This document shows, one piece after another, positions 22,845 through 43,308 of a stretch of DNA of 64,000 nucleotides. Below the pieces are notes generated by a model. The model searched no databases and had not been told where the DNA came from. It saw only the letters and a program-made list of their open reading frames with translations. Source of the DNA: Candidatus Kerfeldbacteria bacterium. GTDB taxonomy: Bacteria > Patescibacteriota > Patescibacteriia > UBA10025 > JAHIVO01. A program made the translations under genes and the position numbers. Position 1 is the first letter of the stretch, and each line of letters starts with the position of its first letter. The DNA lies in NCBI GenBank assembly GCA_047946875.1, contig CP181398.1, forward strand, positions 399,154 through 463,153, read 5' to 3'.

Positions 22845-23109
22845 TTCTCGCCGCTAGCTCGAAGTGACTAAGGTAGATAAGAAGCCCCCAGACCCAACTT
22901 ATTAGAATAAATAGTCAAATTAAATACTAAATAAATCGTACCTTAGAATAAAATGTCACAAAATATGTAGTTGAGGAACGACCCGTAGGGTTTACTTAAC
23001 TTAAGCGTGAGCGGTTTTAAGTAAAAGTGACAAAACAAGTATTTTGTTAATTTTATTTTATGTGCGAAGCTTCTTTTGTTACTTTTCTTAGCATGAAGAA
23101 AAGTAAGGC
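22845..23109 (+). repeat. left copy (L1) of the large inverted repeat flanking the accessory island
   Basis: The last ~170 bp (22940-23109) are near-identical to the reverse complement of 40839-41010, and about 25 bp around AAGAAGCCCCCAGACCC match again. The middle is divergent. Confidence 0.75.
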
Positions 23110-23179
23110 AAGAATGTTGAAATATATCACACTGAACAACATATTAATAGATGAAAGATCGCAAAGCTTTATTTAACTT

Positions 23180-23255
23180 CAGGCAGAGCAAACGCTCTGT
23201 CTTTTGCCTGTCTGCCCGCTTCGCAGCGAGGCGAGCCGAAGGTAGGCTTGATTCA
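23180..23255 (+). repeat. repeat family C, copy 1 (hairpin CAGAGCAAACGCTCTG + TCTTTTGCCTGTCTGCCCGCTTCGCAGCGAGGCGAGCCGAAGGTAGG)
   Basis: The GC-box TGCCTGYCTGCCCGCTTCGCAGCGAGGCGAGCCGAAGGTAGG is conserved at 23180, 24572, 24975 and 26033. Confidence 0.7.
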
Positions 23256-23340
23256 TGGCTAATAAAGGAGTACGATAGAAAGTGAGTAATCTCTCAAATA
23301 CTAGGAGATTAAAAAGCTAATAATAATTAAAGAAATATAT

Positions 23341-23790
23341 ATGGAAGACCATAAGAATACACCAAATCCAGAACAGGAGAAAAAGATGGAAGACTCGTCT
23401 TTTAATCCAAAGGAGCAGGCAAAGGACATGATAGATGACGTGAAGGGGATGTCCAACGTAAAACCTGGAGATTTTAAACCAGGGAAAATAAAAGGAATGC
23501 CAACGGCATTAATTATTATTCAGATTCTCTTGATTTTGAGCGCAATAGGTTCGCTGTTTGGTGGCGTTTATGGAATCATCGGTACCGTTATTGCTCTTAT
23601 TACCGTATGGGGAATAAACAAACGTGCAATGTGGGCATACTGGTTATTAATCATCTTTATTTTATATAGCATTGTTATAACATTAGTTAATTGGATGGGC
23701 TATGGTTATGTGAGTCTTGTTATAGACGCGGTTCTACTGTATTACATTACTAAGTCTAAGAGTTGGTTTATGCCACAAGATAAAGCGTAG
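23341..23790 (+). CDS. hypothetical membrane protein
   Basis: An acidic N-terminus followed by three TM helices. A hairpin terminator follows at 23815-23853. Confidence 0.5.
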   Translation: MEDHKNTPNPEQEKKMEDSSFNPKEQAKDMIDDVKGMSNVKPGDFKPGKIKGMPTALIIIQILLILSAIGSLFGGVYGIIGTVIALITVWGINKRAMWAYWLLIIFILYSIVITLVNWMGYGYVSLVIDAVLLYYITKSKSWFMPQDKA

Positions 23791-23814
23791 TAACACCGTA
23801 ACTTTAACCACTTT

Positions 23815-23853
23815 AAGGCAGGACGAAAGTCCTGTCTTAAGTTTATTTTTTTA
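23815..23853 (+). terminator. hairpin terminator (family C hairpin type)
   Basis: CAGGACGAAAGTCCTG followed by a T-rich tract. Confidence 0.55.
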
Positions 23854-23896
23854 TAAAAAAATAGAATTGTCATTTCGACCGAAGTGGAGAAATCTT

Positions 23897-24083
23897 TAAT
23901 TTTTTCTTTAATACTTTTTGACAGCAAAAAGTATCGGAAAAACTGCTGGGGGCTTCAATGCGCTACCAGTAATTTTCAGGTAATAATTTGAGAATGGCTT
24001 AAGAAGCCCCCAGACCCTAAGTCATTAAAATAACTAGTTATATAAAAGATTTGATAAAAATGCACCTTAGAATAAAATGTTAT
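23897..24083 (+). repeat. internal partial copy (L2) of the large repeat
   Basis: Near-identical to the reverse complement of 40985-41163. It is preceded by repeat D, as L1 is. Confidence 0.75.
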
Positions 24084-24158
24084 ATACCTTCTGTCATTCA
24101 TGCCGAAGGTAGGTATTTAATTTAAAAAAAAGGACCACATTGTGATCCTTACTTTATT

Positions 24159-24479
24159 TTACAAAGTCACCATAGGGGAGTCGTAATTCCACTGGAAGCT
24201 GATGGAATATTCAGCGGCAGACTTGCACGCCTTTTCCATCGGCTTTTTTAGTTTGTGAGCGAGTTGGACTGCCTTACTCTTTTCTGACAGGTTAGTGTCG
24301 GCGGAAAATACGATAATATTTCCATTGGAATAAGATTTTCTGATGTGCCATTTGAACTCGAAATCTTCAAACTCAGACTCTGAATTTATCTTTTCTAACA
24401 AGTTTGCCGCGAGCAGTTCGCATTGGGCATTGTCGTTATAACCAACACTGAATTCAAATCTCATGTTATAGGTGCTCAT
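24159..24479 (-). CDS. hypothetical protein (GC-elevated)
   Basis: An AGGAGG RBS lies 8 nt upstream of the ATG at 24479. The track ORF starts 11 codons earlier but lacks an RBS there. A hairpin terminator follows at 24120-24150. Confidence 0.5.
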   Translation of the reverse strand: MSTYNMRFEFSVGYNDNAQCELLAANLLEKINSESEFEDFEFKWHIRKSYSNGNIIVFSADTNLSEKSKAVQLAHKLKKPMEKACKSAAEYSISFQWNYDSPMVTL

Positions 24480-24571
24480 TGATAACCTCCTTTTTGTATT
24501 TTTATTTTTCATATAAGTTTATAATTAATTTAGTTATTTGTCAAGACTTATTTAAATTACCCCAACTTAAA

Positions 24572-24640
24572 TCAGGATGAAAGTCCTGTCTCTTGCCTGC
24601 CTGCCCGCTTCGCAGCGAGGCGAGCCGAAGGTAGGTTTAT
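24572..24640 (+). repeat. repeat family C, copy 2
   Basis: The hairpin CAGGATGAAAGTCCTG plus the conserved GC-box. Confidence 0.7.
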
Positions 24641-24974
24641 ATAATAAATCGTGATATAATTATCTTGGTTGACTTAGAAGTTTAAGTTGACTAGTTGACC
24701 AATAGTTAATCAATGGAGGATTCCTATGATTGGCAAACGTTTGTTCTTAGAGGTCGTCGCCTAGGATTCGCACGTCTTGCGAGAAAACCTACTAGCGTAG
24801 GATGCTGTACCCGATCTAGTAGGTAGTAATGGTGTTGGCAGGGCATCCCGACCTCACTTCATTTGAAGGAGTATGCTCACTGTTTAGTCTTTTGACCAAA
24901 CAGACGTACAGAGACTTACCCTCGGAATGTTTTATATATTCCGAGGGCCCTTTTTTAATTTTAGTTTAAGTTTT

Positions 24975-25025
24975 ATCTTTTGCCTGTCTGCCCGCTTCGC
25001 AGCGAGGCGAGCTGAAGGATGGTTT
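24975..25025 (+). repeat. repeat family C, copy 3 (GC-box only)
   Basis: It abuts the stop of the minus-strand lipoprotein gene. Confidence 0.65.
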
Positions 25026-25893
25026 ATTCTTCCAGACAGCTAATATCTGTTCCTTGTTTAACGGGTCCTGATGCTTCAACTAGACCGACAATACCAGGTG
25101 CTGTAAAACTAATACTCATGTTACTCTCGTTAACTGAACCAGTTACAGTGCCAAACTCACCCATAGAAAAAGTAAAGCTTCCAGAAGAATCTGGTGTGAA
25201 AGTAATAGTCTCAGATGCATCGTCTGTGTTTGTTCCGCTTTCACCTACTATTGTCCAAATCCAATACCAAGTACCAGTCCACTCTGAGTCAATACTCTCT
25301 CCGCAGGTATGAGCTGTAAAGGTTAATTCGTGCGAAGCGGTCATGGGTGTTCCTTCAATATCATAGACTGCCTCATCAGACATAGAAGCTTGGTAACCTG
25401 GGCATCCATCTTTGTGCCATTCACCAGCTCGCATTTCGCACTCTGTTTCTGATAGTTGTTCATTGAATGGTGCGCAGCAACCTTTATTACATTCTTCTAA
25501 ATCTTCGCATTTACCAGGTTTTGATGTGCCAGCCCGTTGTTCGCATTCGACTTGTGATAATTCCGTACAAAATGGTACACAACATTCAGTCTGACATTGT
25601 TCGATTTGGTCGCAAGTTGTGTTATTATAAGTGCCCCCAAATTGATCACACATTTCTTTTGTGTCTTCAGTACATTGAGGTGTACAACAACCAGTCTGAC
25701 ATTGTTCTATATTACTGCAACTACTCTTATTCCATGTTCCGCCATGAGTGTTTACACAGGCATCTTGATCTGTTTCTGAACAAAAAGGCATACAACATCC
25801 TTGATCTTTATCATCTGAAATATTAATGCCACATCCACTCAATACCAGTCCGATACCGATAACGAAAGCGATGATTCCAATTGTTTTTCCCAT
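25024..25893 (-). CDS. cysteine-rich secreted lipoprotein with 4 tandem ~36-aa Cys repeats
   Basis: A lipobox (LVLSGC). There are four repeats of the form GCCxP[FQ]C..E....C....GGT.N..C..IEQCQT, followed by a Ser/Thr/Gly-rich beta-type C-terminal domain. GC is about 43%. Confidence 0.6.
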   Translation of the reverse strand: MGKTIGIIAFVIGIGLVLSGCGINISDDKDQGCCMPFCSETDQDACVNTHGGTWNKSSCSNIEQCQTGCCTPQCTEDTKEMCDQFGGTYNNTTCDQIEQCQTECCVPFCTELSQVECEQRAGTSKPGKCEDLEECNKGCCAPFNEQLSETECEMRAGEWHKDGCPGYQASMSDEAVYDIEGTPMTASHELTFTAHTCGESIDSEWTGTWYWIWTIVGESGTNTDDASETITFTPDSSGSFTFSMGEFGTVTGSVNESNMSISFTAPGIVGLVEASGPVKQGTDISCLEE

Positions 25894-26032
25894 AAATTTA
25901 TATTTAATTTTAATTATCTCTATTATAACATATTGTTTTGTTTTTCAATAACTGTCTATGTTTTAGGTATCAATAGCACCTGTGGGATCGTTATTATGAT
26001 AAGCTATCTTATTCTGATTTTATTTTGGTTCA

Positions 26033-26092
26033 AGTCCTGTCTTTTGCCTACCTGCCCGCTTCGCAGCGAGGCGAGCCGAAGGTAGATTTGAT
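26033..26092 (+). repeat. repeat family C, copy 4
   Basis: The conserved GC-box lies between divergent genes. Confidence 0.65.
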
Positions 26093-26159
26093 TTTTTTAT
26101 ATCCAAAGAGTAAGCTGTATTAATCACTAAATTGTTCTTTAGAGAAAGAGAGATAAATC

Positions 26160-26627
26160 ATGATTGAGATTGTTGATTTTCAACGTCGATATTTTGAGGG
26201 GATGGTGGATTGCTACAACCAAGGTTTCCCTGACGGACATAACCGTTATACTCTAGCTAGGTTAAGTCGTTTTCAGCGAGATTCAATATTTCTCGCTATC
26301 AATGAGTTTGATCTTGTGGTCGGAGTACTTATCGGCATTACTTCAGTTCGTGAAGCTTGGTTTACTGCGCTGACCTTACTACCAAATGTCGGCAATCAAT
26401 CCCAGATTATTTTTCAGTTAGCAAATCATCTTTCTAACCGATTCGTAGATATGGGATTTGATGAAGCGCATCTTACTACTAAACGCCGAAGTATACATCG
26501 TTTGGTTCAGCGCGTTGGTGCACCAAATATTGTTGAAGTAAAGAATTGTTACTTTGATGACCAAACTAGGTGGGTGGTGACCGTTAACCGCAGTAATTTG
26601 CCACAGCTTATCAAGCTTATTAATTAA
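26160..26627 (+). CDS. hypothetical protein (GC about 45%; possible small acyltransferase-like fold)
   Basis: A 155-aa ORF followed by two hairpins at 26641-26670 and 26686-26718. The fold guess is weak. Confidence 0.45.
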   Translation: MIEIVDFQRRYFEGMVDCYNQGFPDGHNRYTLARLSRFQRDSIFLAINEFDLVVGVLIGITSVREAWFTALTLLPNVGNQSQIIFQLANHLSNRFVDMGFDEAHLTTKRRSIHRLVQRVGAPNIVEVKNCYFDDQTRWVVTVNRSNLPQLIKLIN

Positions 26628-26873
26628 GCATATTCAAGAAAACCGTTCATACTGTGATCGGTTTTTATTATTAACATTCCTTTAAAGCAGAGCAAACGCT
26701 CTGTCTTTTGTTTTTTTTAACTGTGGATGAAATGTGTGTAATTGTACTAATTTAGGCCCTAAAAAACTCTAATATATTCTTTTATTTAGTTCAGACAGGG
26801 GTAGGAGTTTACATTTTTTAAGACTTTTTAGTAAATTTTTAGCTAGTTTTAGCATAAAATTGGTACCCCATCC

Positions 26874-26901
26874 TTGCAATTTCTATATGTTGTGGTATAA
26901 T
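26874..26901 (+). promoter_or_regulatory. sigma70-like promoter (TTGCAA-16-TATAAT)
   Basis: Near-consensus -35 and -10 boxes about 170 nt upstream of the 27073 gene. Confidence 0.45.
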
Positions 26902-27072
26902 GATAGTATACATACAACATATAGTAAAAAAAGGGGGAATTTGCTACCTGAGAAGGTATAGAAGATTGTGACGTTAGAATTTTTAAATAATTAAATCGCC
27001 AAAATCAAATTATATCGTTTCTAGGTAGTTACACTAGGGTTTTTTGGATATAATTAATAATTTTGGCTAAAG

Positions 27073-27939
27073 ATGCTTATTAGCAAAAATATGAAAAAGA
27101 ATAAGAAAAACAGTAATAGTAAGACTAGAAACAAATTTGAAAGATTTAAAAATTGGTTTAAATTAAGACCTATATTAAGAAATATTATAATCGGTATAAT
27201 ATTAGGTATTATTTTTTTAATTGCAAATGAAATACGTGCAGGAATGAGGGCAGATGAATCATCGAAAGAAATAACTGAATCATTTTCTATATTAACAAAT
27301 ACAATTATTAATGATGAAGAATTAGATGAATTAAAAGTTTATGATTTTGAAGAATTTACAATAGTAGGTGATATCAGATTTGATAAAAATTCTAAAGTAA
27401 TGTCACTTGGTCATGAAAGTAATTTTGCATACTTTCTTTCAAAGATGTGGTTATCTGAACATGCAACGATAAAAACAAAATTTATTCCTCTTACAGAAGC
27501 CGCTGATTACTACATCATTGTTGAAAATGTTTTTCAAATTATTATTGGAGATGGAGATCGACGTGCAATTAGTCTAAAGTCATTTGTTGGAGGAGGAGAT
27601 TGGGAATATGAACAGCCAGTTAACCGAGCAGTAGATTTATCTCCACGATATTATCTTGACCGAAATTTTCCAATAAATAATTTTGTTATTGTTGAAATAG
27701 ATGTAAGCGCAAAAGTGATAGAAGGAAATAAACGTACTGTGAAGCTGGATATAAGATTTACAGATGAAAATGGGGATGTATATAATACTTTAGACTTGGA
27801 AAATATTACTTGGGAATTTGTCGTTGAAAAATCGACAAATGATATAGCGCGTTATGGAGTTGGTCTTATTGATCCAAGCGGTCAGCATATGCCGAAAGTA
27901 AATTTTGAATATTTACATATAACCGAAAAACAACAATAA
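27073..27939 (+). CDS. hypothetical membrane-anchored protein
   Basis: A K-rich N-terminus, a single TM, and a C-terminal domain of about 230 aa. Confidence 0.5.
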   Translation: MLISKNMKKNKKNSNSKTRNKFERFKNWFKLRPILRNIIIGIILGIIFLIANEIRAGMRADESSKEITESFSILTNTIINDEELDELKVYDFEEFTIVGDIRFDKNSKVMSLGHESNFAYFLSKMWLSEHATIKTKFIPLTEAADYYIIVENVFQIIIGDGDRRAISLKSFVGGGDWEYEQPVNRAVDLSPRYYLDRNFPINNFVIVEIDVSAKVIEGNKRTVKLDIRFTDENGDVYNTLDLENITWEFVVEKSTNDIARYGVGLIDPSGQHMPKVNFEYLHITEKQQ

Positions 27940-27964
27940 AATTAGATTAACAGAATAAAAATAT

Positions 27965-29197
27965 ATGAGTGAAACACAAAATAAATTTCAGATAAAAGGT
28001 AAATTAGCTGAACAGTTTTTGCATACACTTGCAACAAAATCATTCTTTTCTGATTGGTGTTTTTTAAATCCAATTTTACCAGATGGTAAAGAACTTTGTG
28101 ATCTTTTAGTAATCTTTGATAATGTTGCCATTATTTGGCAGGCTAAAGATTTAATGTTGAATAAAAAAGGTAAATACAATCCCAAAGAGGTTAAAAAGAA
28201 TATTCGCCAGCTCTCAGGAGCCCGACGTCAATTATTTGACTTAAAGACACCAATCGTATTAGAAAATATGCGACGAACTAAGATTAGTTTCGATCCAGAT
28301 TCAATTTCTGAAATTTACTTAATTTCTGCCCTGCTTGGAGAAGGAGAAGACTCATATGAGATAATGGAATCTATAAAAGAATTTCAAGTGCATGTATTTA
28401 CTAGAAAATTCACAGAGATTGCTTTAAAGGAATTAGATACAATAAGTGATTTTGTTTATTATTTAAGAAACAAAGAGGCATTCATTAAAGAAAAAGTAGG
28501 AAGTCTGATTGTTCTAGGAGGTGAAGAAGAAATTCTTGCATACTATTTATTAAATAATAATAGCTTTGATTCTCTCAATGGATATAAATTTGTCACTCTT
28601 GACGGTAATCACTGGAAATATCTTATAGATAATCCAAGTTATATTTCAAAAAAGAAAGCTGATAAAATAAGTTATGGCTGGGACTCAATTATTGACCGTG
28701 CTCATGAGGGGTCATCAAAATATGAGTTAGTAGCGCGTGAATTAGCAAGACCTAATCGTTTTGCACGTAGAGTCCTTGGAAAGGCGTTTTTTGATGCTAA
28801 TGTAATAGCACACGAGGATCAAGAACATGATATTTATAGAAGAGTGGTAATTGGAACAGACGATAAAGGAAATGGTCATACTTATTGTTTTCTTTTTATG
28901 GATAAAGACAGACCGAGAGAAGATAGGGCGAAATATCTTGAAGCATTATGTTTTGTAGCTAGAGGAAAATATCAGAAAAACTCAAAAGTTATTGGGGTTG
29001 CTACAGAACAGAAAATTGAATCCAAGTGCTCTTATGATTTCATTTTATTAGAAATACCAGAGTGGACTGACGAGCTAGAGGAACAAAAAAATGAGTTTCA
29101 AAAAACATTTGATATTTTAGTTGACCCTAAAATAACGTCTATTAGGGCTACTCAGTATCCAATAGTGAAAAAAAATACATCTTCAAAAACAAATTAA
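27965..29197 (+). CDS. hypothetical protein with N-terminal PD-(D/E)xK/NERD-like nuclease motif
   Basis: ELCDLLVIFDNVAIIWQAKD resembles the D...(D/E)xK core of a restriction-endonuclease fold. The rest of the protein is unassigned. Confidence 0.45.
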   Translation: MSETQNKFQIKGKLAEQFLHTLATKSFFSDWCFLNPILPDGKELCDLLVIFDNVAIIWQAKDLMLNKKGKYNPKEVKKNIRQLSGARRQLFDLKTPIVLENMRRTKISFDPDSISEIYLISALLGEGEDSYEIMESIKEFQVHVFTRKFTEIALKELDTISDFVYYLRNKEAFIKEKVGSLIVLGGEEEILAYYLLNNNSFDSLNGYKFVTLDGNHWKYLIDNPSYISKKKADKISYGWDSIIDRAHEGSSKYELVARELARPNRFARRVLGKAFFDANVIAHEDQEHDIYRRVVIGTDDKGNGHTYCFLFMDKDRPREDRAKYLEALCFVARGKYQKNSKVIGVATEQKIESKCSYDFILLEIPEWTDELEEQKNEFQKTFDILVDPKITSIRATQYPIVKKNTSSKTN

Positions 29198-29396
29198 TTT
29201 ATTTTTGGTGTAAGTAATATGCGTTTTGAATGTAAATAAAAAATGTTATGTATTAACACTTTACTTTTAGGGTATTGCAGGTTGACGTAAAATACCCGTA
29301 TGATATTATGAATCACTTGTCCAAGGCACGTTAACATAAAATGAAATGAATATATTTTCGAAATTGTAATATAAAACGAGAAAAAAGGAAATAAAA

Positions 29397-30611
29397 ATGA
29401 ACAGGAATAATACTCCAACGCAGGACAGCTATGATGTAGTTGTTCTAGGAGCGGGCATTGCCGGACTTTTGCTTGCGAGCGAAATTTCGAAGCAATATTC
29501 CACACTAGTCGTTGAAAAAGGGTTGTCACCCCCTAAGACAAAGTATTGGCTCACAACCAAGGATGCTGTTAAGGGGAATCCTGATCTAGACGACGAATCA
29601 TTGATAAGTCGGAAGTTTGACAGTTTTTTTATCGCAGATTCTCAGCAAAGAAATCGGCAGGTACGAGGAGGTTATTATCTCTGGGATACTAATAAACTTG
29701 TTGATTTCCTCTGTGATAAGATTTCCAAAAATGGTGGTCACTTTTTGATGAATCACAAGTACTACTCACGTCGGTATGAATCTGACAACATAGTGGTTTC
29801 AGTAAATCAGAGAGATATTAGTGCAAAGGTGGTTGTTGATTGCATGGGATTTAACTCGCCGATTATTGGTGCAAACAGCATGGTGGACATAATTGGTTAC
29901 CACACTGTTTGTGGTGCTACAGTACCCACAATTAAGGAAGTTGATCCAGTTGCATTCTGCAATCTAGTTGAGTCGGGCCATGCGCATTATCTCGAAATAT
30001 TCCCCACTAATGAAAAGACAGCTCATGTTGTTATGATAGCTTCATCCGAAGAGCCGTACCCTTTCGATAAGCTTCTACCAGAGTTTCTGTTTGCAGTAGA
30101 GAATTCTCGTTGGTCGCAGTATTTCAAGGGAACATCTTCAGAAATGTTGCCACTTCACGGCGTGATCCCAGTCGGTACTCGAATGAAGACTGGAATAAAT
30201 AGAGTCTTCATTTATGGTGAGGGAGCTCAAGTTCATCCCGCTTCAACTGCTGCTGGATTGACACAGATACTCCAAAGCTACCGCCGGGTTGCTAAAGAGT
30301 TAGGAAGCCGTATCCAATCAAATCAATTAGGTGGAAAATCGCTTGAAGGGATTAGCGTCGATAACATGTCTCGTTTTTGTAGCAGGATACATAGAAGTGT
30401 TTTTGGCGATTATATGGGGTGGACTTCCACAGGATTCTCAAAACTGGTCAACCAAATGGGGTCTCTCAGTGATGATGTTTTAAATGGAATGCTGTTCGGT
30501 GATTTAGTTGCCGGTGATGTTTTTAGTTTCGAAAATCTATACCGATTGATTCGGTCACGTAATACCATTTTGTTGCGTCACGGATTTCGAGCATTGCTTC
30601 CTGGTAATTGA
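29397..30611 (+). CDS. FAD-dependent oxidoreductase (lycopene cyclase / geranylgeranyl reductase-like family)
   Basis: An N-terminal Rossmann dinucleotide motif (YDVVVLGAGIAGLLLA). GC is about 46%, and an RBS (AAAGGAA) is present. Confidence 0.65.
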   Translation: MNRNNTPTQDSYDVVVLGAGIAGLLLASEISKQYSTLVVEKGLSPPKTKYWLTTKDAVKGNPDLDDESLISRKFDSFFIADSQQRNRQVRGGYYLWDTNKLVDFLCDKISKNGGHFLMNHKYYSRRYESDNIVVSVNQRDISAKVVVDCMGFNSPIIGANSMVDIIGYHTVCGATVPTIKEVDPVAFCNLVESGHAHYLEIFPTNEKTAHVVMIASSEEPYPFDKLLPEFLFAVENSRWSQYFKGTSSEMLPLHGVIPVGTRMKTGINRVFIYGEGAQVHPASTAAGLTQILQSYRRVAKELGSRIQSNQLGGKSLEGISVDNMSRFCSRIHRSVFGDYMGWTSTGFSKLVNQMGSLSDDVLNGMLFGDLVAGDVFSFENLYRLIRSRNTILLRHGFRALLPGN

Positions 30612-30665
30612 TGTAGTTACAGAATCCAAGAAGATGATTTTTTCGAAATAACAGTACATATTAAT

Positions 30666-30700
30666 AACCTCTCTAGGTAACACTAGAGAGGTTTCTTTTT
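30666..30700 (+). terminator. rho-independent terminator
   Basis: AACCTCTCTAG-loop-CTAGAGAGGTT followed by TCTTTTT. Confidence 0.65.
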
Positions 30701-30782
30701 AATGTTTGTTATAATATATTTTTTCGGTAAGTGGAAAGGTGTCAAATAAAAAATCCCACTAAATATTTAGTGGGAAATTCAA

Positions 30783-31019
30783 TTAACATGCACCGTCATT
30801 GTCAGCACCTTCACAAAGTGAGTCTGGCGGATATGTTGGATAATCAACAAAATTATCCGGACGGATTTCTCTTACTGTTGAAGAGCACTTTTTTGCATGG
30901 ATTTTTTCAAATCCTATTTTTACGCGCTGTTGTCCGCATTCAGGACAAGTCTTGCAACAGCCATGCGTGATAAGTTCACCTGGAGGATGATTACATCTCC
31001 ATTCATTTGAACTGGGCAT
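30783..31019 (-). CDS. small zinc-ribbon protein
   Basis: A GGGAGG RBS. The protein contains CC-x2-C-x2-C and additional Cys residues. It is GC-elevated. Confidence 0.5.
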   Translation of the reverse strand: MPSSNEWRCNHPPGELITHGCCKTCPECGQQRVKIGFEKIHAKKCSSTVREIRPDNFVDYPTYPPDSLCEGADNDGAC

Positions 31020-31186
31020 TTTTACCTCCCTGTTTTTTTATGTGCAATTAAGTAAGGCAATCTTAGAATGATATTGGGTTTTTGTCAATCATTTTATTGA
31101 CAGAATATTTTATTAGTAATAAGGTGTATTATCGATCAAAAAAATATATTCATAACATAGAACGTTTAAAAAAATGGAGGAAAACA

Positions 31187-31507
31187 ATGGAATTTAATGT
31201 TGGTGATATGGTAGATGAGCAAGGTTCAAAACTGATAGTGTATGGAAGAATACTTTCTCTCACAGAGACGGAAGCGCAAGTAAAATTTCGTATCCCGCTT
31301 CGTGAGAAGAATAAAGGTTTTTGCGATGCTTGTGGAAGTTCGGACCATCTTTCAATCAATGATGATACTGACGAACTAGTGTGTCTGGTAACTGGCTGTG
31401 GTCATGAGTATGGTTTTAAAGAAACAACCGAAACTATTGCTTTGACCAAGCTGATCAATATTACAGCCAAGCGCGCTGCCGAGAAAGAAGCAGAAAAAGT
31501 AAACTAG
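31187..31507 (+). CDS. small zinc-binding protein
   Basis: A GGAGG RBS lies 6 nt upstream of the ATG at 31187, so the track ORF start at 31082 was rejected. Contains CDACGSSDH...CLVTGCGH. A hairpin terminator lies at 31527-31558. Confidence 0.5.
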   Translation: MEFNVGDMVDEQGSKLIVYGRILSLTETEAQVKFRIPLREKNKGFCDACGSSDHLSINDDTDELVCLVTGCGHEYGFKETTETIALTKLINITAKRAAEKEAEKVN

Positions 31508-31622
31508 TTTTACTAAGCGTAAAGATAAAGACTTACTTATTTGAGTAGGTCTTTTTTATTTGATATTGTAATAAATATCTGCTATACTTAGTTCAATATA
31601 TAAACAAATTATAAATAAACGT

Positions 31623-32846: not shown

Positions 32847-32859
32847 TATTTATAATGTC

Positions 32860-32970
32860 TGTCATTCTGAGGGAGGTCACCCGTGGTGACTGACCGTGAG
32901 AATCTCAGCCAAAGGCGGCATTGCATCACCTTTAGTGATGAGACTCTTCGTTTTACTCAGAGTGACAATG
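32860..32970. repeat. structured palindromic element B (copy of element A)
   Basis: TGTCATTCTGAG...GTGAGAATCTC...CTCAGAGTGACA with inner hairpins. It lies between convergent genes. Confidence 0.6.
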
Positions 32971-33023
32971 ACTTTTTTGAATAAAAAAAGACTCACTATG
33001 TTACCAATGTAGGCGATTTTGGT

Positions 33024-36000
33024 TTATTCAGTTTTATTCTTGAAGTAGTCTTCTATATCTTCATCGAATTTATCCATGCTTTGTTCGATAAGCTGGTCAA
33101 AGTCAGGCGCTACATTTGTATGATCCTCACCAAATATCTCAGCAAGTTCTTGGCGTTGTGATTCATTACCTAATAATATAGCTGAATGCATATGTTCACC
33201 AAAGCCATGTTCAGAGTCATTCATTTTTAGAAAGTTTTTAATATTATCTGAGTTACCACATGTGTCTCCACCATCTCCTACAAAATAAAAAGATGATGCG
33301 TAATCAGGATAATTATCTATTTCATCGTTCAAGGCTTTGGCAGTTTTTTTAATACCATCCAGCATATTGGTACCACCTTGCGTATTCAATTTTTGCATCA
33401 GTCTAACTTTCACGGTAGAGGAGTCGCCGTCATCATAATCATATCTAGTTGGTGAATCATAGTCCTGGTCAAAATCTTTTATCTTTGTAGTAGAGTCAGA
33501 AAAAATATCAATTGAGAAACGTATATATCCAAAAGCGTTTGAAATTTTATCAAAAAGCTCAGAATAAAAAACTAAAAGTTTTCTGGCACTTCGTAATTTT
33601 TCTCCTTGCATAGATCCAGAAACATCTATTAGGATTGATGCCATGAATCGTGGTTCGACAGAAGATTTTATGGTACGGGGATTTTTCACTGTTCCAAAAA
33701 GTAAATTTCTTGGTTTCATTACAGCCTTACGATTGAATGCGCCTTGACGTGTCAGAGAATCTTCATCAAAATCAACTTCATCTTTCCTAGGTAAGCGTTC
33801 AGCAAAATATTGGAACCATTGATCGACTAATGGGCCAATTTCTTCTCGTATATCATTGTATTCGTTGTAAAGATGATTTTCTTGCTCTATTTTTGTTTGG
33901 ATACGATCTAATTCAGCTAAGTCTTGTTCATTTAATTCTTCAATAAATTTATCACGTTCATCTTCACTCATAAATCCATCATCAACCATTTGGTCCATAT
34001 TATTTTTGACTTCTTCTTTCATTTGTTCTTCAAATGCTTCTAATTTTTTTTCAAGTTCTTCTTTAAAATCTTCAGGTAATTCATCTTGTTCTAATTTATC
34101 TTTAATCTCTGACAAGTCTTGGAATTTTTCTGCCTCTTGCATTTGTTGTTCAATTTCTTGTTTTTTTTGTTCCATTTGTTCCATTTGCTCCTGCGCTTGT
34201 TCAAAATTGGATTGTGCTTGTTGTGTATCACTATCTGAGGCATCAGATATATTATCTGTAGGGTTGGAAGACTCTTGAGATTCCTGAGATTCTTGTGAAT
34301 CTGTTGACTCACTATCTGATTCGCTGTCTTGCTCTGATTTTTGGTCTTGAGGAGGTTCTACACCGCCGTCTTCAGCTTCGGGCGCCGAGTCTTGTTGTCC
34401 ACTTTCACCTTGTTCGTCACTTTCATTCTTATCTTCTGGTTTTGCATTTGGAGTAGCGTCAAAACGTCTCCAATCTTTACCATCCCAAATTTCTGACCAG
34501 GCATGACCAGTATTTTGAGTGATGGCTGATATACCATCTTGAGCACCTTCTACTTTATGTCCAGTTACTAATCTCGCTGGTATTCCGGCTGAGCGCATCA
34601 TCGCAACGAATTTTGTATTAGCTGAATAGCATTCAAGATATTCTGACGTGTCAATATTTTGTAAATAATTATCTCCGGTAGATTCACTTCGGATTTTATA
34701 TTGCAAGGCCTGTGCTTTTTGTAGGTCACCACCACCAGGATAAAAATGGTTTGCCAAGATATGTTGGCGAACTTGTTCAGCTTTTTGCATTGAGCTACCA
34801 GCCAAACTAGAAATAATAGTTTCTGTTTTTGGTGATAGGTCACCTTTGTAGATAGTAGTTGTATCTTCTGGAATGGGGGGATTGGTAAAAGTCTCTGATT
34901 CTTGTATAAAATCTAATGAGAATAATCCGTTGCTATCAGCCTCAATATAGAAGCAACCATTTTGATCACGAAAAATCTTGGCCGAACCTCCTTCAAATTT
35001 CAAAGAAGAAGCATCAATTCCGAAACCGTTTGGTAATGGAAGTGCTTTTAATCCAGCATCTAGATAGCCGGATAAGGAAGTGCGTTTTTCACTATCAAGA
35101 GATGATGAATATTCAGTGATATCTTTTTTCTTGCTCCAGGTTTTATTATCTATATCGTAATAACTTTTTCGTCCTGCAGCGTAATACCCACCTAATGGAG
35201 GTTTGATCTCAAATATAGGTTTCACTAACATTTCTTCTTTGGATTCTGGTCCGGGTGGAGGTGTGTGATATTCGTCGTTATCATCTGGAGGTATAGCTGG
35301 GTCTTCTGGTGAGCTAGGTGGAACAGCATCTTCCATAAATTGTTCAAGTTCTTCGTCTAGTTCCTGCATACTCTCACTGGATTCACCGCTATCAACTTCT
35401 TGTTGTAATTGAGGTAATCCATCTTGCATAGTGTCTATCAGGTTTTTGTATCCAGATTCATCACCTCGCTGAATGTAATCACGATAAGATTCTTGTAGTT
35501 CTTCGAATATTTTTCTTTCATCTCCCGAAAGTTGTGATACTATTTGATCACGTTCATCCATAGATATTAAATCTCTCTCCTCGTGTAACCAGTTTGCTTT
35601 AAGTGCTTTTAATACTTTTTGGGTACGTGAAAGATCTCCAATTTCTTTTATGGTTCGTCGTGATTCATCTGATAATGAAGATTCAATTTGATGTCGGCCA
35701 GTACGACCATATGCATCCATAACTTTTTTTTGGACACGTGCTTGGGTAACTTCGTTATAAAGTGTATCTAACTGTTCTAGAGGAATATCTTTACCTTTCA
35801 TACCTTCTATGAATTTTGCAAAACGCTCATGATCGTAGTTTGATATATAGGCCGTTAAATCTCGTATACGCGCACTAACTGCCTCAATACCTGATTCTTC
35901 TAGATCTTGGATATCATAAATCAAAGCATCAGGACGTAGGTCTGAGGCTACTTCTTCAGCTGTATATTTGCCTTCCAAGAGTCCTTGTATTTTTTCAGAG

Positions 36001-36173
36001 CGTGATTCTTGGTCCACAGTATAACGAAGCGACCATTCTTTGCCAGGTAATACTGGCAGTTTATCTGCTGCAGCTTGCTCTGCCAAAAACAAAATTTCCC
36101 GCGTAAGTTTTACGGATTGTGGCTTTTCTCTTGATTCGGCCGATGGATCTATACTTTCGCCACGTGGTGCCAT
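33024..36173 (-). CDS. vWA (MIDAS) domain protein fused to a transglutaminase-like Cys-His-Asp core and an acidic low-complexity linker
   Basis: TGase-like core (YLECYSANTKFVAMMRSAGIPARLVTGH ... GHAWSEIWDGKDWRRFDATP). Acidic repeats (DSESDSESTDSQESQESQESS, EQMEQMEQKKQE). C-terminal vWA with MIDAS DVSGSM...GGT...GDGGD. It starts 6 bp after the upstream AAA gene stop. Confidence 0.8.
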   Translation of the reverse strand: MAPRGESIDPSAESREKPQSVKLTREILFLAEQAAADKLPVLPGKEWSLRYTVDQESRSEKIQGLLEGKYTAEEVASDLRPDALIYDIQDLEESGIEAVSARIRDLTAYISNYDHERFAKFIEGMKGKDIPLEQLDTLYNEVTQARVQKKVMDAYGRTGRHQIESSLSDESRRTIKEIGDLSRTQKVLKALKANWLHEERDLISMDERDQIVSQLSGDERKIFEELQESYRDYIQRGDESGYKNLIDTMQDGLPQLQQEVDSGESSESMQELDEELEQFMEDAVPPSSPEDPAIPPDDNDEYHTPPPGPESKEEMLVKPIFEIKPPLGGYYAAGRKSYYDIDNKTWSKKKDITEYSSSLDSEKRTSLSGYLDAGLKALPLPNGFGIDASSLKFEGGSAKIFRDQNGCFYIEADSNGLFSLDFIQESETFTNPPIPEDTTTIYKGDLSPKTETIISSLAGSSMQKAEQVRQHILANHFYPGGGDLQKAQALQYKIRSESTGDNYLQNIDTSEYLECYSANTKFVAMMRSAGIPARLVTGHKVEGAQDGISAITQNTGHAWSEIWDGKDWRRFDATPNAKPEDKNESDEQGESGQQDSAPEAEDGGVEPPQDQKSEQDSESDSESTDSQESQESQESSNPTDNISDASDSDTQQAQSNFEQAQEQMEQMEQKKQEIEQQMQEAEKFQDLSEIKDKLEQDELPEDFKEELEKKLEAFEEQMKEEVKNNMDQMVDDGFMSEDERDKFIEELNEQDLAELDRIQTKIEQENHLYNEYNDIREEIGPLVDQWFQYFAERLPRKDEVDFDEDSLTRQGAFNRKAVMKPRNLLFGTVKNPRTIKSSVEPRFMASILIDVSGSMQGEKLRSARKLLVFYSELFDKISNAFGYIRFSIDIFSDSTTKIKDFDQDYDSPTRYDYDDGDSSTVKVRLMQKLNTQGGTNMLDGIKKTAKALNDEIDNYPDYASSFYFVGDGGDTCGNSDNIKNFLKMNDSEHGFGEHMHSAILLGNESQRQELAEIFGEDHTNVAPDFDQLIEQSMDKFDEDIEDYFKNKTE

Positions 36174-36179
36174 AGATTT

Positions 36180-39100
36180 TTAATTAGTTACACGTTTTTG
36201 AGAAGTCCATGTCTTCAGAGCTTTTCGGATCTTTTCTTGGTCTTCTTTTTTGTCTATATGAGTTAGAAAATATTTTTCTAATAATTCACGAGCAGTATTT
36301 TCTGGATCACTTGATGTTTTTTCTTCAGTCGTCATACGACTTAACGTATATGCACATCTACGTAGTTCACGGCCAGTAATAGGTTGAGTAACGGGTAAAG
36401 CTTTTCGTGAACTTGTTCCTTTTTCAAAATTCTTAATAAAATCTTCTCGTAATTTATTTGCAAACTGGACTAAAGTCAGAATAGTATCAATATCAAATTT
36501 TTGTTCTAGAGTGGGCTTATCAACTCCATTGTCTATTCCATTAACATATTGATCCCAAAGTTTTACAAATTCATTATGATCCATACTGGCCTCAAATGTG
36601 AGATCAGCTAATGAATCAACGCCACGTGCAATACGAAGAGCTTCAGATGAGTCATACATCGGACGTTTATTAGGATCATCAGGATTGGCTTCACGCGTCA
36701 TCTGTGGGTATCCAATTTCTTGGGAAACCATACGACTTCGTGTAGCAAATTGAGGATCGAATGTACCTGGATAATTTGGATTCATTGACCCGACTAATAA
36801 AACACTAGATAATGCCTTAATTGTTTTTCCAGAACTAGTTTTGAGTGTTAGGGATCTTTTTTCGTCCATCAATGCATGTAAGAATATTTGAGCTTGCTCA
36901 GGCATAGCGTTAAACTCATTGAAATAAACCACAGCTCCTGGTGTACGAATACCGTTTAATATCGTAGAAGGAATTTTAACAGTCTGAGAAGCACCATCTT
37001 TGGATTCCAACATAACATCCTCAGATAGTTCAAATTCTGTAGTCCACTTGGTGCCATCCATACCAAAGTAAGGTCGGTTGGTCATATTACAAAACATTTT
37101 TACACGAACATCTTTACCTGTTCCGGCATGTCCTTTTAGTACCAGCATACCTTCTTGTAGATCCATCTGCATTTTTAGATTACCTGCCATGTTTTCTAGA
37201 TCATCTTCGGTTTCATTGTCTGTAACCCAGTGACTTTGCCATTCTGGGATAAACCCTTTGCCATTGCTAGTTTCTATATTTGGTTGGTTTTTAATACGGT
37301 TAATACGTTGTAATAGGGGAATATTATTTTCTGCACAAAAAGTACCAAATTTTTTATATGCTTCTGAATATTTATCTTGCCATTCTTTATCTTCATCTTC
37401 ATCAGTACGTTCACTAATTTTTTTACGTGTAGAATATAATTCTCTTAGTATTTTTCGATTATCTCTCCATTCTTGTCGGAGTTTTGAATCTTCTCCATGA
37501 TTCCAGTCATTGTATTTCTTTTTAATATTCTTAAAATCCTCTGCAGTAATGTAGGAAGGGGGAATGGATTCACCTTTATATGATTGTAATCCTAGACGCC
37601 ATTCTTGTTCGTCTCGCATACCTTCATATAATCTTACATTTTCATTTTTACCATCACCTGTATTAATGTTTAATATAATATCACCTTGAATATCTTTTGC
37701 TGATATACCTGGTCCTCGTGTTTTGCTATCCTCTTCGAATGCAATATCTACGGATCGTTCTTCTCTTTCCTTCACTTTCGATTCCCATTTAGGAAAGCGA
37801 GTATCACCAAAACTAACCATTTGTTTGCCGGTATCAGCGATAGTAGTCATACCACCACGTTCTATTTCTGTTAACGCATTTGAAAGTCTTACTTTCATCA
37901 TACGTTTTAGCTCTTTAGCAGCATCTGGATCATCATCAGCAAGTGCTTCTATTTCAGTTTCGATATATTTCTTTGCCTCAGATGCTCCTAAATATTGTTC
38001 GCCCGCTGTTCTATCTTTGAAACCTTGAGCTTGTAAGCGATCCTCAAGGCTAGATATCTCTTGTTGTAAAGTATCTACATGAGCTTCGATACGTTCGGAA
38101 GCTTTTTCCCTGACTTTAGCATATTCGATTTTAAATTTATGTTCGTATTCTTCTGCTAATAAATCAAGAGATGTTCGTGCTTCTTGAACTTGTTTGTAAA
38201 TTTCATCAGCTTCAAATGGTATATCGTGATTAATAGAACTTAGTCGAGCTTTAATCTGAGGATAACGAAATTCTAACCAATCATCCATTTGCATTTTTGT
38301 TTCGAAAGATTCTAAATCTTTTTTTGTTTTACTTATTAGTTCATCAATATCTTTCTTTACTTCACCACCGCGTTTTTCAAAAAGTTCACGAATCTGACTA
38401 TCAAGATCTGTTCGTGCTTTAGCTAACTCTAGTCGCTGATCACTAATCAAAAAACCTTCTTGAGATTTTATGTCTTCTAATATCTCGCGAATTTCGGATA
38501 TTGAGCCAAAAGAAAGTCCTCCCTCCAATTTTGTTCGTACTAGTTTTAGAGCCTTGTCAGCCGCTTCTTTGGCAAACATTTTTTCTTTGTCTTGTATAGG
38601 TTTCTCTAAGCCTTCTATAACATAATCAATCTCTTCGGATCGTAAACCACCTGCTTGTAGTTTTTGTCGTACAGTATTAAATTGATCACGAGCTTGTACT
38701 AAGCCTTCATGCGTTGAGACAGTTTCTAACATTTCTTTGAATTTGGTTTGTAGATCATCTCTTACTCCATCTAGTTTATCCATGGATTTGTTATCCAGAC
38801 CTGCTTGTTCATTCTTTGCAGCTTGTTGGGTGAATATATCGTCTATATTCAAATCAGCTGTTGCGCTCTGAATACGATGCTTGTCTAGTTCACCAGCAAG
38901 TTCATCAAAATTCGCTTCATGAATAACTAAATGTCCATCTTTGTCTATAGCTCTTATGTTTCCGTTGTTATCGAAATCTACATGGGATAGATTTGATTCA
39001 CGTTTTACTTCTTTTAGTGTATCCTTTGTCATTACTATTAGATCATCGCCAGAATAGAATAGGAAAAAATTACCTTTAGGGTCTAGCTGAAGGTTTGATA

Positions 39101-40058
39101 TGCTATCATAGTTTTCTGGTATAGGTGCGCCGATAGACGTAAATGATCCAGTAGTTTCATCATTCCCACCAAGATCTATCATGCGAATTTCACGTGGGCT
39201 ACTAGTACGACTAAAATAAAAAATATTAGAATTGTTCGGGTCAACCGCAATATTTCTCTCAACTGATGGGATAGTTTCAGTATAGATTGGTTGGCCTTTT
39301 GGGTCGTCATTTTTCATGATGTTAATACCAATATCGGTGATCTGGACGGAATATTCACCATTGATTTCCACATATCCTTCTTGTTCTCCAACTACTCTTT
39401 CTAGATTTTCCCTAAGTTCTTCACTATATTCGTCTTTAGGATTTAATCTTTTCCAATCACGTGGGGCAAGTTCAACTCCGTGTTCATTCTTGGTAACCAG
39501 TGTTATAACGGCACCATCTTTGGAAAACATAACAAGGTTATTATCTGGCAAAACAGCTACATTAGAAACAGTCTCATTATCAATACCACCAGAGCGGATA
39601 TTTATCATATTGTTAGTACCTAACGCTTTTCTAGCTTGTCCGCGTAGTTCAATTGGTATATCGTCAACGCTAATTTGATTATTAGTGCTGCTTTTTTTAG
39701 CAATGTAACTTTTTGAATGTAGTTTGCTGCTACTATCACTCCAATACCCTGAAGTAATAGTTTTATTAGTAATGTTGGACTGTATATCAGTAATTTTTTT
39801 AGCATTTTCGTCATAAATTTCTATATCTGAGCCTCTTTCTAGACTTACAATAGTATAATTATTCCAGGGTTGTATTGCTTCAATTTTTTGAGGTTCAACC
39901 TCTCTTCCGGTACCAGAAGATCTTCCATCAGATCTTCCATCAATCGGATTTTCCGATCGGACTAACTGGTTTAATTTTAGCTCAGGTAAAGATAGCTCAT
40001 GTTCTTCATGAGTCTCTGTTTCGCCTTGTTTATTTCCTTTTTCGTTTCCACCTACCAT
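36180..40058 (-). CDS. giant MoxR/AAA_5-like ATPase with N-terminal beta-propeller-like repeats and a long coiled-coil
   Basis: The C-terminal AAA_5 core reads LVLKGHAGTGKD (Walker A with D in place of S/T), VVYFNEFNAMPEQAQIFLHALMDE (Walker B NE for DE), LLVGSMNP (sensor 1) and FATRSRM (Arg). The N-terminus has repeated beta-strand blocks and about 300 aa of heptad-rich E/K sequence. Confidence 0.8.
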   Translation of the reverse strand: MVGGNEKGNKQGETETHEEHELSLPELKLNQLVRSENPIDGRSDGRSSGTGREVEPQKIEAIQPWNNYTIVSLERGSDIEIYDENAKKITDIQSNITNKTITSGYWSDSSSKLHSKSYIAKKSSTNNQISVDDIPIELRGQARKALGTNNMINIRSGGIDNETVSNVAVLPDNNLVMFSKDGAVITLVTKNEHGVELAPRDWKRLNPKDEYSEELRENLERVVGEQEGYVEINGEYSVQITDIGINIMKNDDPKGQPIYTETIPSVERNIAVDPNNSNIFYFSRTSSPREIRMIDLGGNDETTGSFTSIGAPIPENYDSISNLQLDPKGNFFLFYSGDDLIVMTKDTLKEVKRESNLSHVDFDNNGNIRAIDKDGHLVIHEANFDELAGELDKHRIQSATADLNIDDIFTQQAAKNEQAGLDNKSMDKLDGVRDDLQTKFKEMLETVSTHEGLVQARDQFNTVRQKLQAGGLRSEEIDYVIEGLEKPIQDKEKMFAKEAADKALKLVRTKLEGGLSFGSISEIREILEDIKSQEGFLISDQRLELAKARTDLDSQIRELFEKRGGEVKKDIDELISKTKKDLESFETKMQMDDWLEFRYPQIKARLSSINHDIPFEADEIYKQVQEARTSLDLLAEEYEHKFKIEYAKVREKASERIEAHVDTLQQEISSLEDRLQAQGFKDRTAGEQYLGASEAKKYIETEIEALADDDPDAAKELKRMMKVRLSNALTEIERGGMTTIADTGKQMVSFGDTRFPKWESKVKEREERSVDIAFEEDSKTRGPGISAKDIQGDIILNINTGDGKNENVRLYEGMRDEQEWRLGLQSYKGESIPPSYITAEDFKNIKKKYNDWNHGEDSKLRQEWRDNRKILRELYSTRKKISERTDEDEDKEWQDKYSEAYKKFGTFCAENNIPLLQRINRIKNQPNIETSNGKGFIPEWQSHWVTDNETEDDLENMAGNLKMQMDLQEGMLVLKGHAGTGKDVRVKMFCNMTNRPYFGMDGTKWTTEFELSEDVMLESKDGASQTVKIPSTILNGIRTPGAVVYFNEFNAMPEQAQIFLHALMDEKRSLTLKTSSGKTIKALSSVLLVGSMNPNYPGTFDPQFATRSRMVSQEIGYPQMTREANPDDPNKRPMYDSSEALRIARGVDSLADLTFEASMDHNEFVKLWDQYVNGIDNGVDKPTLEQKFDIDTILTLVQFANKLREDFIKNFEKGTSSRKALPVTQPITGRELRRCAYTLSRMTTEEKTSSDPENTARELLEKYFLTHIDKKEDQEKIRKALKTWTSQKRVTN

Positions 40059-40209
40059 AAATATTAATTTAATTTGTAATTTATCAGAAAAGTTTTGATA
40101 AGTATTTATTTTTATTAATATATTACATTATTGTACATTATTCTTACTGTTTTGTCAACCCCAGTCTATTGATATGAGAAGTTTAATTTATTTGGTATAC
40201 TATAAAAAT

Positions 40210-40839
40210 ATGAAGAGACTTTTACTAACATCAAGCGGAGAATTTGTCACCGACGGTAAGTTGGATTTTTTTGGTATGCGTCGAGAAGACTTAAGATGGG
40301 CTTATATTATAACAGCAGGAAAAAATATGGAGAATGTCAGTTTTATGGAAGTTCGGAAGAAAAGGATGAATGAATTGAAGTATGATTTTACCGAAATTGA
40401 TATAGATAACAAAACAGAAAATGAAGTAAGGAAAGAATTAAAAGATTTTGATGTAATTTATGTGGAAGGAGGGGATACTTTCTATTTATTAAAAGCAATT
40501 CGCAATTGTAATTTCAAAGCTATAATAGAAGAGAAAATAGAACAAGGAGTTATATATGTGGGATCCAGTGCTGGTGCATATATAACTTGTCCGACAATTG
40601 AAATGGCTACTTGGATTAATAGTAATAATTTCAGTTACCATGGATTAACTGATTTTACTGGTATGAGTTTAGTACCTTTCTTTATTTACGCACATTACGA
40701 AGAAGGTGTAAAAGATATACTCAAAGAGAAGATGAGGTATCTAGGATGTAATACCAAAATATTAAATGACGAGCAGGCATTAAGAATAGAAGATAATAAA
40801 ATTGAGTTGCTTGGAGATCCAATAGAAATATATATTTAG
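40210..40839 (+). CDS. pepE: peptidase E / S51 family dipeptidase (PepE-like)
   Basis: MKRLLLTSSG..., VIYVEGGDTFYLL and GSSAGAYI motifs. The ATG at 40210 was preferred over the track start at 40174. The TAG stop overlaps the first base of repeat R. Confidence 0.65.
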   Translation: MKRLLLTSSGEFVTDGKLDFFGMRREDLRWAYIITAGKNMENVSFMEVRKKRMNELKYDFTEIDIDNKTENEVRKELKDFDVIYVEGGDTFYLLKAIRNCNFKAIIEEKIEQGVIYVGSSAGAYITCPTIEMATWINSNNFSYHGLTDFTGMSLVPFFIYAHYEEGVKDILKEKMRYLGCNTKILNDEQALRIEDNKIELLGDPIEIYI

Positions 40840-41163
40840 CCTTACTTTTCTTCATGCTAAGAAAAGTAACAAAAGAAGCTTCGCACATATAATAAAATTA
40901 ACAAAATACTTGTTTTGTCACTTTTACTTAAAACCGCTTACGCTTAAGTTAAGTAAACCCTATGGGTCGTTCCTCAACTACATATTTTGTGACATTTTAT
41001 TCTAAGGTGCGATTTTTATTAAATTATATATAGCTATTGATTTTAATAACTCAGGGTCTGGGGGCTTCTTAAGCCATTCTTAATAGTAAAATGATAATTA
41101 CTGGTAGCGCATCGAAGCCCCTAGCAGTTTTTGAAATACTTTTTGCTGTAAAAAAGTATTAAA
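40839..41163 (-). repeat. right, full-length copy (R) of the large inverted repeat
   Basis: Reverse complement of L1 (22845-23109) and L2 (23897-24083). It contains the palindrome ATACTTTTTGCTGTAAAAAAGTAT and GC boxes. Confidence 0.75.
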
Positions 41164-43304: not shown

Positions 43305-43308
43305 AATA

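Follow-up and report, generated by a model that had tools for sequence, protein, structure and literature searches.

A recombination-prone, possibly inverting segment between copies of a palindrome-ended repeat in a Candidatus Kerfeldbacteria genome

In the candidate phyla radiation (CPR), episymbiotic bacteria have small and streamlined genomes, commonly regarded as structurally fixed, and the sources of variation in them are little known. In the metagenome-assembled genome of one such bacterium, a Candidatus Kerfeldbacteria with a genome contig of 1,309,938 bp, a stretch of 64,000 nucleotides that we call the window (contig CP181398.1) contains a block of about 18 kb bracketed by inverted copies of a non-coding repeat. 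What is this block: a mobile island, a segment that changes orientation, or ordinary DNA between two static repeats that mislead assemblers? An earlier note on the window had described a single accessory island, either prone to recombination or decayed from a composite mobile element. The explanation that we favour, and to which we give about an even chance, is a recombination-prone, probably flipping segment that lies between copies of a lineage-specific, palindrome-ended repeat in a hypervariable interval and is not self-mobile.

The repeat can be read as an element with one complete copy, two truncated copies that complement each other, and one fragment. The sole full-length copy, R (40839-41163, minus strand; 325 nt, non-coding), has four modules in the minus-strand order A-B-C-D and is placed between the stop codon of pepE and the promoter of alkD; the pepE TAG stop (40837-40839) shares its last base with the first base of R, as the earlier note had read it. 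L1 (22878-23109, plus strand) holds modules B-C-D and is inverted relative to R, while L2 (23907-24080, plus strand) holds modules A-B-C, corresponds to the other end of R, and is inverted with respect to R and direct with respect to L1. The longest inverted pair returned by a repeat search is 22899-23109/40839-41049 (211 nt, 92% complementary), which gapped alignment lengthens to 22878-23109 against 41071-40839, with 217 of 235 columns identical. The alignment of L2 spans 41163-40992 of R (152 of 176 columns identical), with inverted arms at 23907-23978/41092-41163, 23988-24047/41024-41083 and 24056-24080/40992-41016. A short and diverged fourth fragment, L0 (22309-22361, plus strand), consists of the module B core (GAGGCCCCCAAACCC) and the spacer, and lies 3' of the ABC ATPase gene. 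The L1/L2/R pairs are the only inverted repeats of at least 40 nt in the whole window; they are real and far beyond chance. The earlier note had recognised the near-identity of L1 and R in inverted orientation and had rightly matched L2, as a third copy, to the other end of R; it had placed the start of L1 at 22845, where no homology precedes 22878, and its count of three copies was one short.

Identity between L1 and R is unevenly distributed, with 15 differences in the outer 65 nt and just three in the inner 170 nt, the stretch for which few mismatches had been claimed; it jumps at module C, from about 75% to 98%. The inner part contains perfect tracts of 45, 23, 48 and 51 nt, the last of them (23059-23109, plus strand; mate 40839-40889) reaching the end of both copies. 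Because these inner 170 nt are 98% identical and include perfect tracts of 45-51 nt, we take them to be the recombination substrate, and the step in identity would, on sequence grounds, be the pattern expected from ongoing exchange or gene conversion.

At any detectable density, the element is not of a generic intergenic kind, an outcome that the earlier note had allowed for. No further copy was found in 73 kb of this 1.31-Mb genome or at the loci of the relatives described below. Exact-pattern scans gave no match for the combined B and C cores in metagenome and genome contig collections, or for the D core in metagenome contigs (collections that evidently lack the source genome and the Joint Genome Institute (JGI) sample 3300083231); an equivalent scan of viral contigs for the H1 end of the element gave none, nor did BLAST of R against phages and plasmids. 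A separate 26-nt motif does precede both L1 and L2, as had been claimed, and occurs exactly twice (22781 and 23869, with 0.00 expected). Its true length is 32 nt with one mismatch (TTGTCATTTCGACCGAAGTGGAGAAATC.., 22779-22810, plus strand; second copy 23867-23898), and it is a hairpin of the same type as the GTCATTC-(stem-loop)-GAATC repeats that stand 3' of the ABC gene both here (22213-22254) and in a relative (L009, about 8250-8280). They appear to belong to a class of intergenic hairpins that is generic in CPR.

The evidence that bears most directly on inversion is a contig of 3197 bp (L002) from JGI sample 3300083231. It matches 40839-43987 at 100%, through R, alkD, mscS and onwards, and it opens with 48 nt that exactly reverse-complement 23110-23157 (plus strand), the inner flank of L1 that we call X, joined directly to R. 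The resulting order, reverse-complemented X followed by R and alkD, is the right-hand junction predicted for an inversion by exchange between L1 and R. X has no second copy in the window, and therefore a second nearby copy is not the source of the junction; it has no coding similarity either, and we rejected the ideas that it is a decayed gene end or another repeat. All three diagnostic module D variants in L002 are of the R type, which places the crossover in the terminal 51-nt identical tract. Since the parental L1-X junction is also present in this sample, on contig L006, X is linked there to both repeats, as would be seen in a mixed population. The earlier suggestion of a recombination-prone or invertible segment is in this way given direct but thin support.

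The parental arrangement is itself secure. Wherever contigs of GCA_008633345.1, GCA_008633355.1 and the JGI sample were compared with the window, identity was 100%, so that the parental junctions, recovered by independent assemblies, are not products of mis-assembly: L1-X is read in L003, L005, L011 and L006, and pepE-R-alkD in L001 (a span of R by contig SWBY01008289 is implied by its length alone). The protein accessions run consecutively in window gene order, from XOU94835 (FtsX) and XOU94836 (ABC ATPase) through XOU94837 (103-aa protein), XOU94838 (149-aa protein), XOU94840 (289-aa protein), XOU94844 (FAD oxidoreductase), XOU94847 (transglutaminase-vWA) and XOU94848 (AAA+ ATPase) to XOU94850 (AlkD). 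The repeats do trouble assemblers, as had been foreseen. Contig SWBY01008289 (L004) begins at 23059, precisely where the 51-nt tract common to L1 and R starts, which tells us that the repeats break short-read assemblies, and two public assemblies have contig ends in or beside them. A further break is seen within pepE, where SWBX01000132 ends and SWBX01001300 starts at a run of seven T (40266-40272) with an overlap of 7 nt. Whatever plausible start codon is assumed, no recorded protein is an exact PepE product, though all of its neighbours are on record; homopolymer length variation or an annotation quirk may lie behind both.

We propose that general (RecA-type) homologous recombination between the inner tracts of the oppositely oriented L1 and R would flip the 17.7 kb between them, with no need for a dedicated recombinase; RecA is encoded at the locus of a relative, and the L002 junction is here taken to represent real molecules. 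Because recombination between L1 and R would flip the segment, both orientations are probably present in the population, with that of the window dominant. No gene would be disrupted, since the crossover falls within the repeats and the boundary of R is where pepE stops; the promoter region of alkD (41164-41212) is likewise clear of the repeat. The flip thus appears to be mostly neutral. It would chiefly reverse, relative to replication, the plus-strand genes of the segment and an operon on the minus strand that encodes an AAA+ ATPase and a transglutaminase-vWA protein (33024-40058). Third-position GC skew tracks the replication strand here: outside the segment it is +0.32 on the plus strand, and -0.35 in a minus-strand ACR_tran gene. 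Read on the plus strand, its per-gene mean is 0.18 for the 13 enclosed genes versus 0.31 for 37 genes outside (Mann-Whitney p=0.002), and in the two genes of the minus-strand operon the coding-strand skew is only -0.06 and -0.15. This weaker skew inside the segment agrees, as indirect evidence, with inversion.

Several observations weigh against this reading, and most of them speak for its strongest rival, in which the repeats are static, no flip occurs, and the 51-nt identical tract gave rise to L002 as a chimera of the assembly or the library. The recombinant junction is one short contig of 3.2 kb from a fragmented, low-coverage assembly, and it reaches just 48 nt past the repeat, into X. 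The reciprocal junction, L1 joined to reverse-complemented pepE, was not retrieved by a look-up via PepE, none being on record. Every other contig across L1 or R has the window orientation, and the protein numbering of the closed genome gives the same gene order; as each parental junction was read in two of the three other assemblies, the inverted form is a minority at best, or L002 is a chimera. Another assembler, moreover, visibly broke at the same tract, as the start of L004 at 23059 shows. The weaker skew could reflect recently acquired DNA or differences between genes. Two further points concern the element itself: its copies were surveyed in 73 kb of the 1.31 Mb, a scope within which an origin as a miniature inverted-repeat transposable element (MITE)-like insertion would have to be judged, and its conserved B and C cores have no functional explanation.

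What speaks against static repeats is the structure of L002. A chimeric path needs k-mers that cover the 51-nt tract together with the unique sequence on either side, and any k above 51 would imply real reads spanning the tract. Nucleotides 1-99 of L002 are common to the L1-X path, and nucleotide 100 is the first R-specific base, a layout that may reflect a branch of a de Bruijn graph at k=99. In L002, moreover, the path taken leads to X and not to pepE, which means that the assembler did not discard the X branch as a minor tip; nor do static repeats account for the weaker skew or for the jump in identity along the repeat. We consider them a possible explanation, though a less likely one than a segment that flips by homologous recombination.

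The surroundings of the segment are variable. On its left lie the genes for FtsX (19839-21530, plus strand) and an ABC ATPase (21535-22194, plus strand), and on its right that for the DNA glycosylase AlkD (41213-41914, plus strand). In one relative (L009/L010) FtsX (87% identity) and the ABC ATPase (94.5%) are followed by two unrelated genes and then by AlkD (61%); because ABC and alkD are 1.85 kb apart there, versus 19 kb here, the interval is variable. Two other relatives (L008 and L018) have different neighbours again, and in L018, found in a scan of GTDB genomes, neither alkD nor any cargo gene lies downstream of ABC. Compared over 19839-22194 against L009 5799-8156, the transporter pair is far closer than AlkD, and the other neighbours differ; this discordant divergence suggests, from sequence comparison, that either the transporter pair or alkD was exchanged horizontally. 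It is in this hypervariable FtsX/ABC-to-alkD interval that L1 and R bracket the 17.7 kb that probably flip.

What, then, is the element? In architecture it is a small, non-autonomous repeat with palindromes at its ends, and it may have begun as a MITE-like insertion. In R, module A holds palindrome H2 together with the 5' half of a GC-rich stem, the 3' half of which is the module B core, TAAGAAGCCCCCAGACCC; the module C core is ACCTTAGAATAAAATGT, and module D, of 150 nt, has palindrome H1 at its end. H1 (TACTTTTCTT-AGCATG-AAGAAAAGTA; 23080-23105, plus strand, mate in R 40843-40868) has arms of 11 nt each when the flanking T and A are counted, separated by a 6-nt spacer (11-6-11). H2 (41137-41158, plus strand, mate in L2 23912-23933), at the A end of R, has the half-site TACTTTT in common with H1. 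The pattern TACTTTT-N(4-14)-AAAAGTA occurs at four sites in the window versus 0.03 expected, all of them 4-5 nt from an element end, and was not found in the relatives' loci. The two ends of the element are alike at 10 of 15 positions in a hand alignment and resemble terminal inverted repeats, TA dinucleotides adjoin both ends of R, and the element contains no open reading frame (ORF) of note and no transposase domain. Modules A and B together are predicted to form a long hairpin (41058-41124, plus strand; L2 equivalent 23946-24012) whose 11-bp stem, CTGGGGGCTTC...GAAGCCCCTAG, is rich in GC and leads into a run of T on the plus strand.

These features could also belong to a functional RNA or regulatory module (a small-RNA gene, a leader or a 3'UTR-terminator) whose copies are kept similar by selection, inversion being incidental. 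The B core (18 nt) and the C core (17 nt) are invariant in R, L1 and L2, and the 45-nt spacer between them has diverged; in R, a G-U pair on the plus strand preserves the pairing of the A-B stem. Compared with shuffled sequences, module D and the A-B hairpin have somewhat more stable folds (z -2 to -3.5), module D lying below its shuffled controls at z=-2.6, with its three L1/R differences in predicted loops. Against this, Rfam 15 gave no family at gathering score for the whole window and only chance-level matches at E up to 1 for both repeat regions, no homologue exists at the loci of the relatives, and the features that favour an RNA are compatible with recombination too. Promoter-like matches to -10/-35 are no commoner than in shuffles (20 versus 18.3 expected) and lack the extended TGn -10 that can be read by eye upstream of several nearby genes; module C was on that count rejected as a promoter. 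The element, to which neither Rfam nor promoter matches assign a function, is putative in role, and an explanation of the locus through a functional RNA seems to us unlikely.

The palindromes invite another reading, programmed site-specific inversion, in which a tyrosine or serine recombinase encoded elsewhere would act at H1 as a regulated switch. In L1 and in R alike, the perfect 11-nt arms and 6-nt spacer of H1 stop 4 nt short of the homology boundary, and an 11-6-11 architecture resembles the core sites dif, lox and FRT. A related palindrome, H2, stands at the other end of the element, such sites are confined to element ends in the numbers given above, and the L002 crossover falls inside the very tract that holds H1. 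The C core was also considered as a dif/Xer-like site and rejected, since by eye its arms are not palindromic. In known invertible elements the recombinase gene is usually adjacent; here none is encoded within 64 kb. Neither a promoter nor a gene fragment is visibly switched, and a crossover in the last of the four tracts has a chance of about 0.3 under plain homologous recombination. We regard a programmed switch as quite unlikely, and it is improbable that H1 provides the core sites for a recombinase encoded elsewhere and makes the 17.7-kb block a programmed invertible segment; we know of none described before in a CPR bacterium. Exchange by general recombination between the inner tracts of L1 and R is the mechanism that we retain.

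The content of the enclosed segment (23110-40838, 17.7 kb) speaks against one coherent island. It is a mosaic: small, GC-raised orphan genes and short repeats occupy 23.1-26.7 kb and host-like genes 27-29.2 kb, and the FAD oxidoreductase, the AAA+/transglutaminase-vWA operon and pepE are enclosed as well. The operon, of about 7 kb, encodes an AAA_5 ATPase (MoxR/dynein-type) of 1292 aa and a transglutaminase-core plus vWA protein of 1049 aa. It is conserved in CPR, with homologues of the pair at 43-57% identity in Komeilibacteria, Taylorbacteria, Paceibacterota and other CPR; the search gave 44 matches, almost all near full length, and from these the two-gene module appears to be restricted to CPR. 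In the two CPR genomes whose context was read, the pair is adjacent and lies beside pentose-phosphate, tRNA-synthetase or ribosomal-protein genes, with no inverted repeats flanking it.

Base composition points the same way. GC content is 35.7% in the segment versus 31.3% in its flanks, a modest and patchy rise, and the 43-46% that the earlier note ascribed to atypical genes was overstated: only six of the ORFs examined (the 149-, 117-, 289-, 155- and 78-aa ORFs and the FAD oxidoreductase) attain 37.8-42.5%, and third-position GC is also raised in just four of them. Third-position GC is host-like in the AAA+/transglutaminase genes and in pepE. Outside the segment, an ORF of 183 aa (15383-15934, minus strand; 42.8% GC, third-position GC 0.50, no domain match) is as atypical as any gene inside it.

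Genes for mobility are absent, as the earlier note had said. Pfam shows no integrase, transposase or invertase in any ORF of the 64 kb, Phage_integrase, Resolvase and Recombinase domains included, and NCBIfam, PHROGs and PADLOC show none in ten cargo ORFs. There is no tRNA or tmRNA gene in the window to serve as an attachment site, and no direct repeat is common to the outer flanks of L1 (22878) and R (41163), hence no convincing target-site duplication. Scans of the segment found no phage structural gene or known defence system. A defence island was rejected for want of a significant PADLOC match; a prophage origin of the cargo was likewise rejected (one weak PHROG of unassigned function; proteins of 410 and 407 aa with no relatives in IMG/VR), nor could a donor be named for the GC-raised FAD oxidoreductase, which has just seven homologues, none of them above 40% identity.

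A composite or decayed mobile element, in which the whole 18 kb moves or once moved as a repeat-bounded unit, would explain the inverted repeats at its bounds, the absence of the block between ABC and alkD in a relative, the raised GC of some genes and the likeness of the element ends (10/15 in the hand alignment, with a common TACTTTT core) to terminal inverted repeats, but it is very improbable given non-coding repeats, a window with no transposase, integrase or tRNA gene, the lack of a target-site duplication, a native-looking, CPR-conserved operon of host-like third-position GC in the cargo, and a block and repeat found nowhere else in the phage, plasmid, viral, genome and metagenome collections searched. 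The single accessory island of the earlier note is thus given up, and the cargo is a patchwork of orphan genes and a native CPR operon, with no self-mobile island among them.

Within the GC-raised part of the segment a second family of repeats was observed. A GC-rich hairpin repeat, D1, is present in four direct copies (23197-23272, 24586-24661, 24973-25048 and 26037-26112) that all contain the exact 23-mer GCCCGCTTCGCAGCGAGGCGAGC; no further copies occur in 73 kb. A small terminator-like hairpin stands immediately 5' of the copies at 23197 and 24586, and the copies are separated by single small ORFs or by an RNA-like region, giving a cassette-like mosaic. As integron cassettes they were rejected: they have no GTTRRRY core, are not attC-like and come with no IntI, and the gene orientations are mixed. 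The RNA-like region (24660-24960, plus strand) is non-coding and GC-rich (about 47% by eye) and is a candidate structured RNA: 24700-24960 folds to -84.8 kcal/mol (z=-3.9 versus shuffles), with a strong intrinsic terminator at 24919-24947, and Rfam gives it no match even at E up to 1. On the other side, 7 kb from R, a run of five genes on the plus strand (47934-54197) encodes a protein with sigma-70 region 4 and HARE-HTH, a DUF8128 protein, a VirD4/TrwB-like coupling ATPase, a dual-specificity phosphatase and an OLD-family (AAA_21 plus TOPRIM) nuclease, and could serve in DNA transfer or in conflict.

A real flip would mean that duplicated non-coding DNA only a few hundred bases long can make a clonal CPR population structurally heterogeneous, and it would reorient a conserved, CPR-specific operon with respect to replication. 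Were the programmed switch true instead, the flip would toggle the AAA+/transglutaminase-vWA operon and some ten other genes between co-directional and head-on to replication, and the 325-bp element would represent a new family of recombination-site-bearing repeats. In either case the locus is a place where assemblies of this organism from short reads break or are joined wrongly, and the reading of the block as a horizontally acquired mobile island is corrected.

Among known systems, genomic islands resemble this locus in being variable blocks, absent from a relative, between conserved flanking genes and with some atypical genes. Unlike genomic islands and other integrative elements, it has no integrase, tRNA or att direct repeats, its boundary repeats are inverted, and its cargo consists partly of native CPR genes; unlike those of a composite transposon, its terminal repeats encode no transposase. 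The repeat itself, 325 bp long, AT-rich, non-coding and intergenic, with truncated copies nearby, imperfect terminal inverted repeats, subterminal palindromes that share a half-site and TA at both ends, is like the MITEs, the palindrome-associated transposable elements (PATEs) and the REPINs (doublets of repetitive extragenic palindromes). It differs from MITEs and PATEs, as seen here, in having one complete copy, no clear target duplication and no matching transposase in 64 kb. With invertons and shufflons (Hin/Gin/Cin, Fim, the promoter invertons of Bacteroides) it shares inverted repeats that flank a segment of possibly variable orientation; those systems, however, have short repeats (about 10-40 bp) and a dedicated, usually adjacent recombinase, whereas the repeats here are long and no recombinase is nearby, and they typically flip a promoter or swap gene ends, neither of which is evident here.

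Flip-flop inversions, which occur also between rRNA operons or insertion sequence copies, come nearest. In them, too, near-identical inverted repeats bracket a chromosomal segment, and short-read assemblies break or mis-join at the repeats. Exchange in these systems inverts the segment reversibly, with no loss of genes and with a mixed population as the result, as would be the case here. The hsdMS inversion of Staphylococcus aureus, between repeats of 1,748 bp, was undetected by short reads and has been reported as recA-independent (PMC6778178). The present case is unlike it in that the repeats are of 170-235 nt and non-coding, the segment is 17.7 kb and not a large part of the chromosome, and the second orientation is suggested by a single contig. 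The closest known phenomenon is a reversible chromosomal inversion between inverted repeats, which is a known kind of rearrangement and not a new mobile element.

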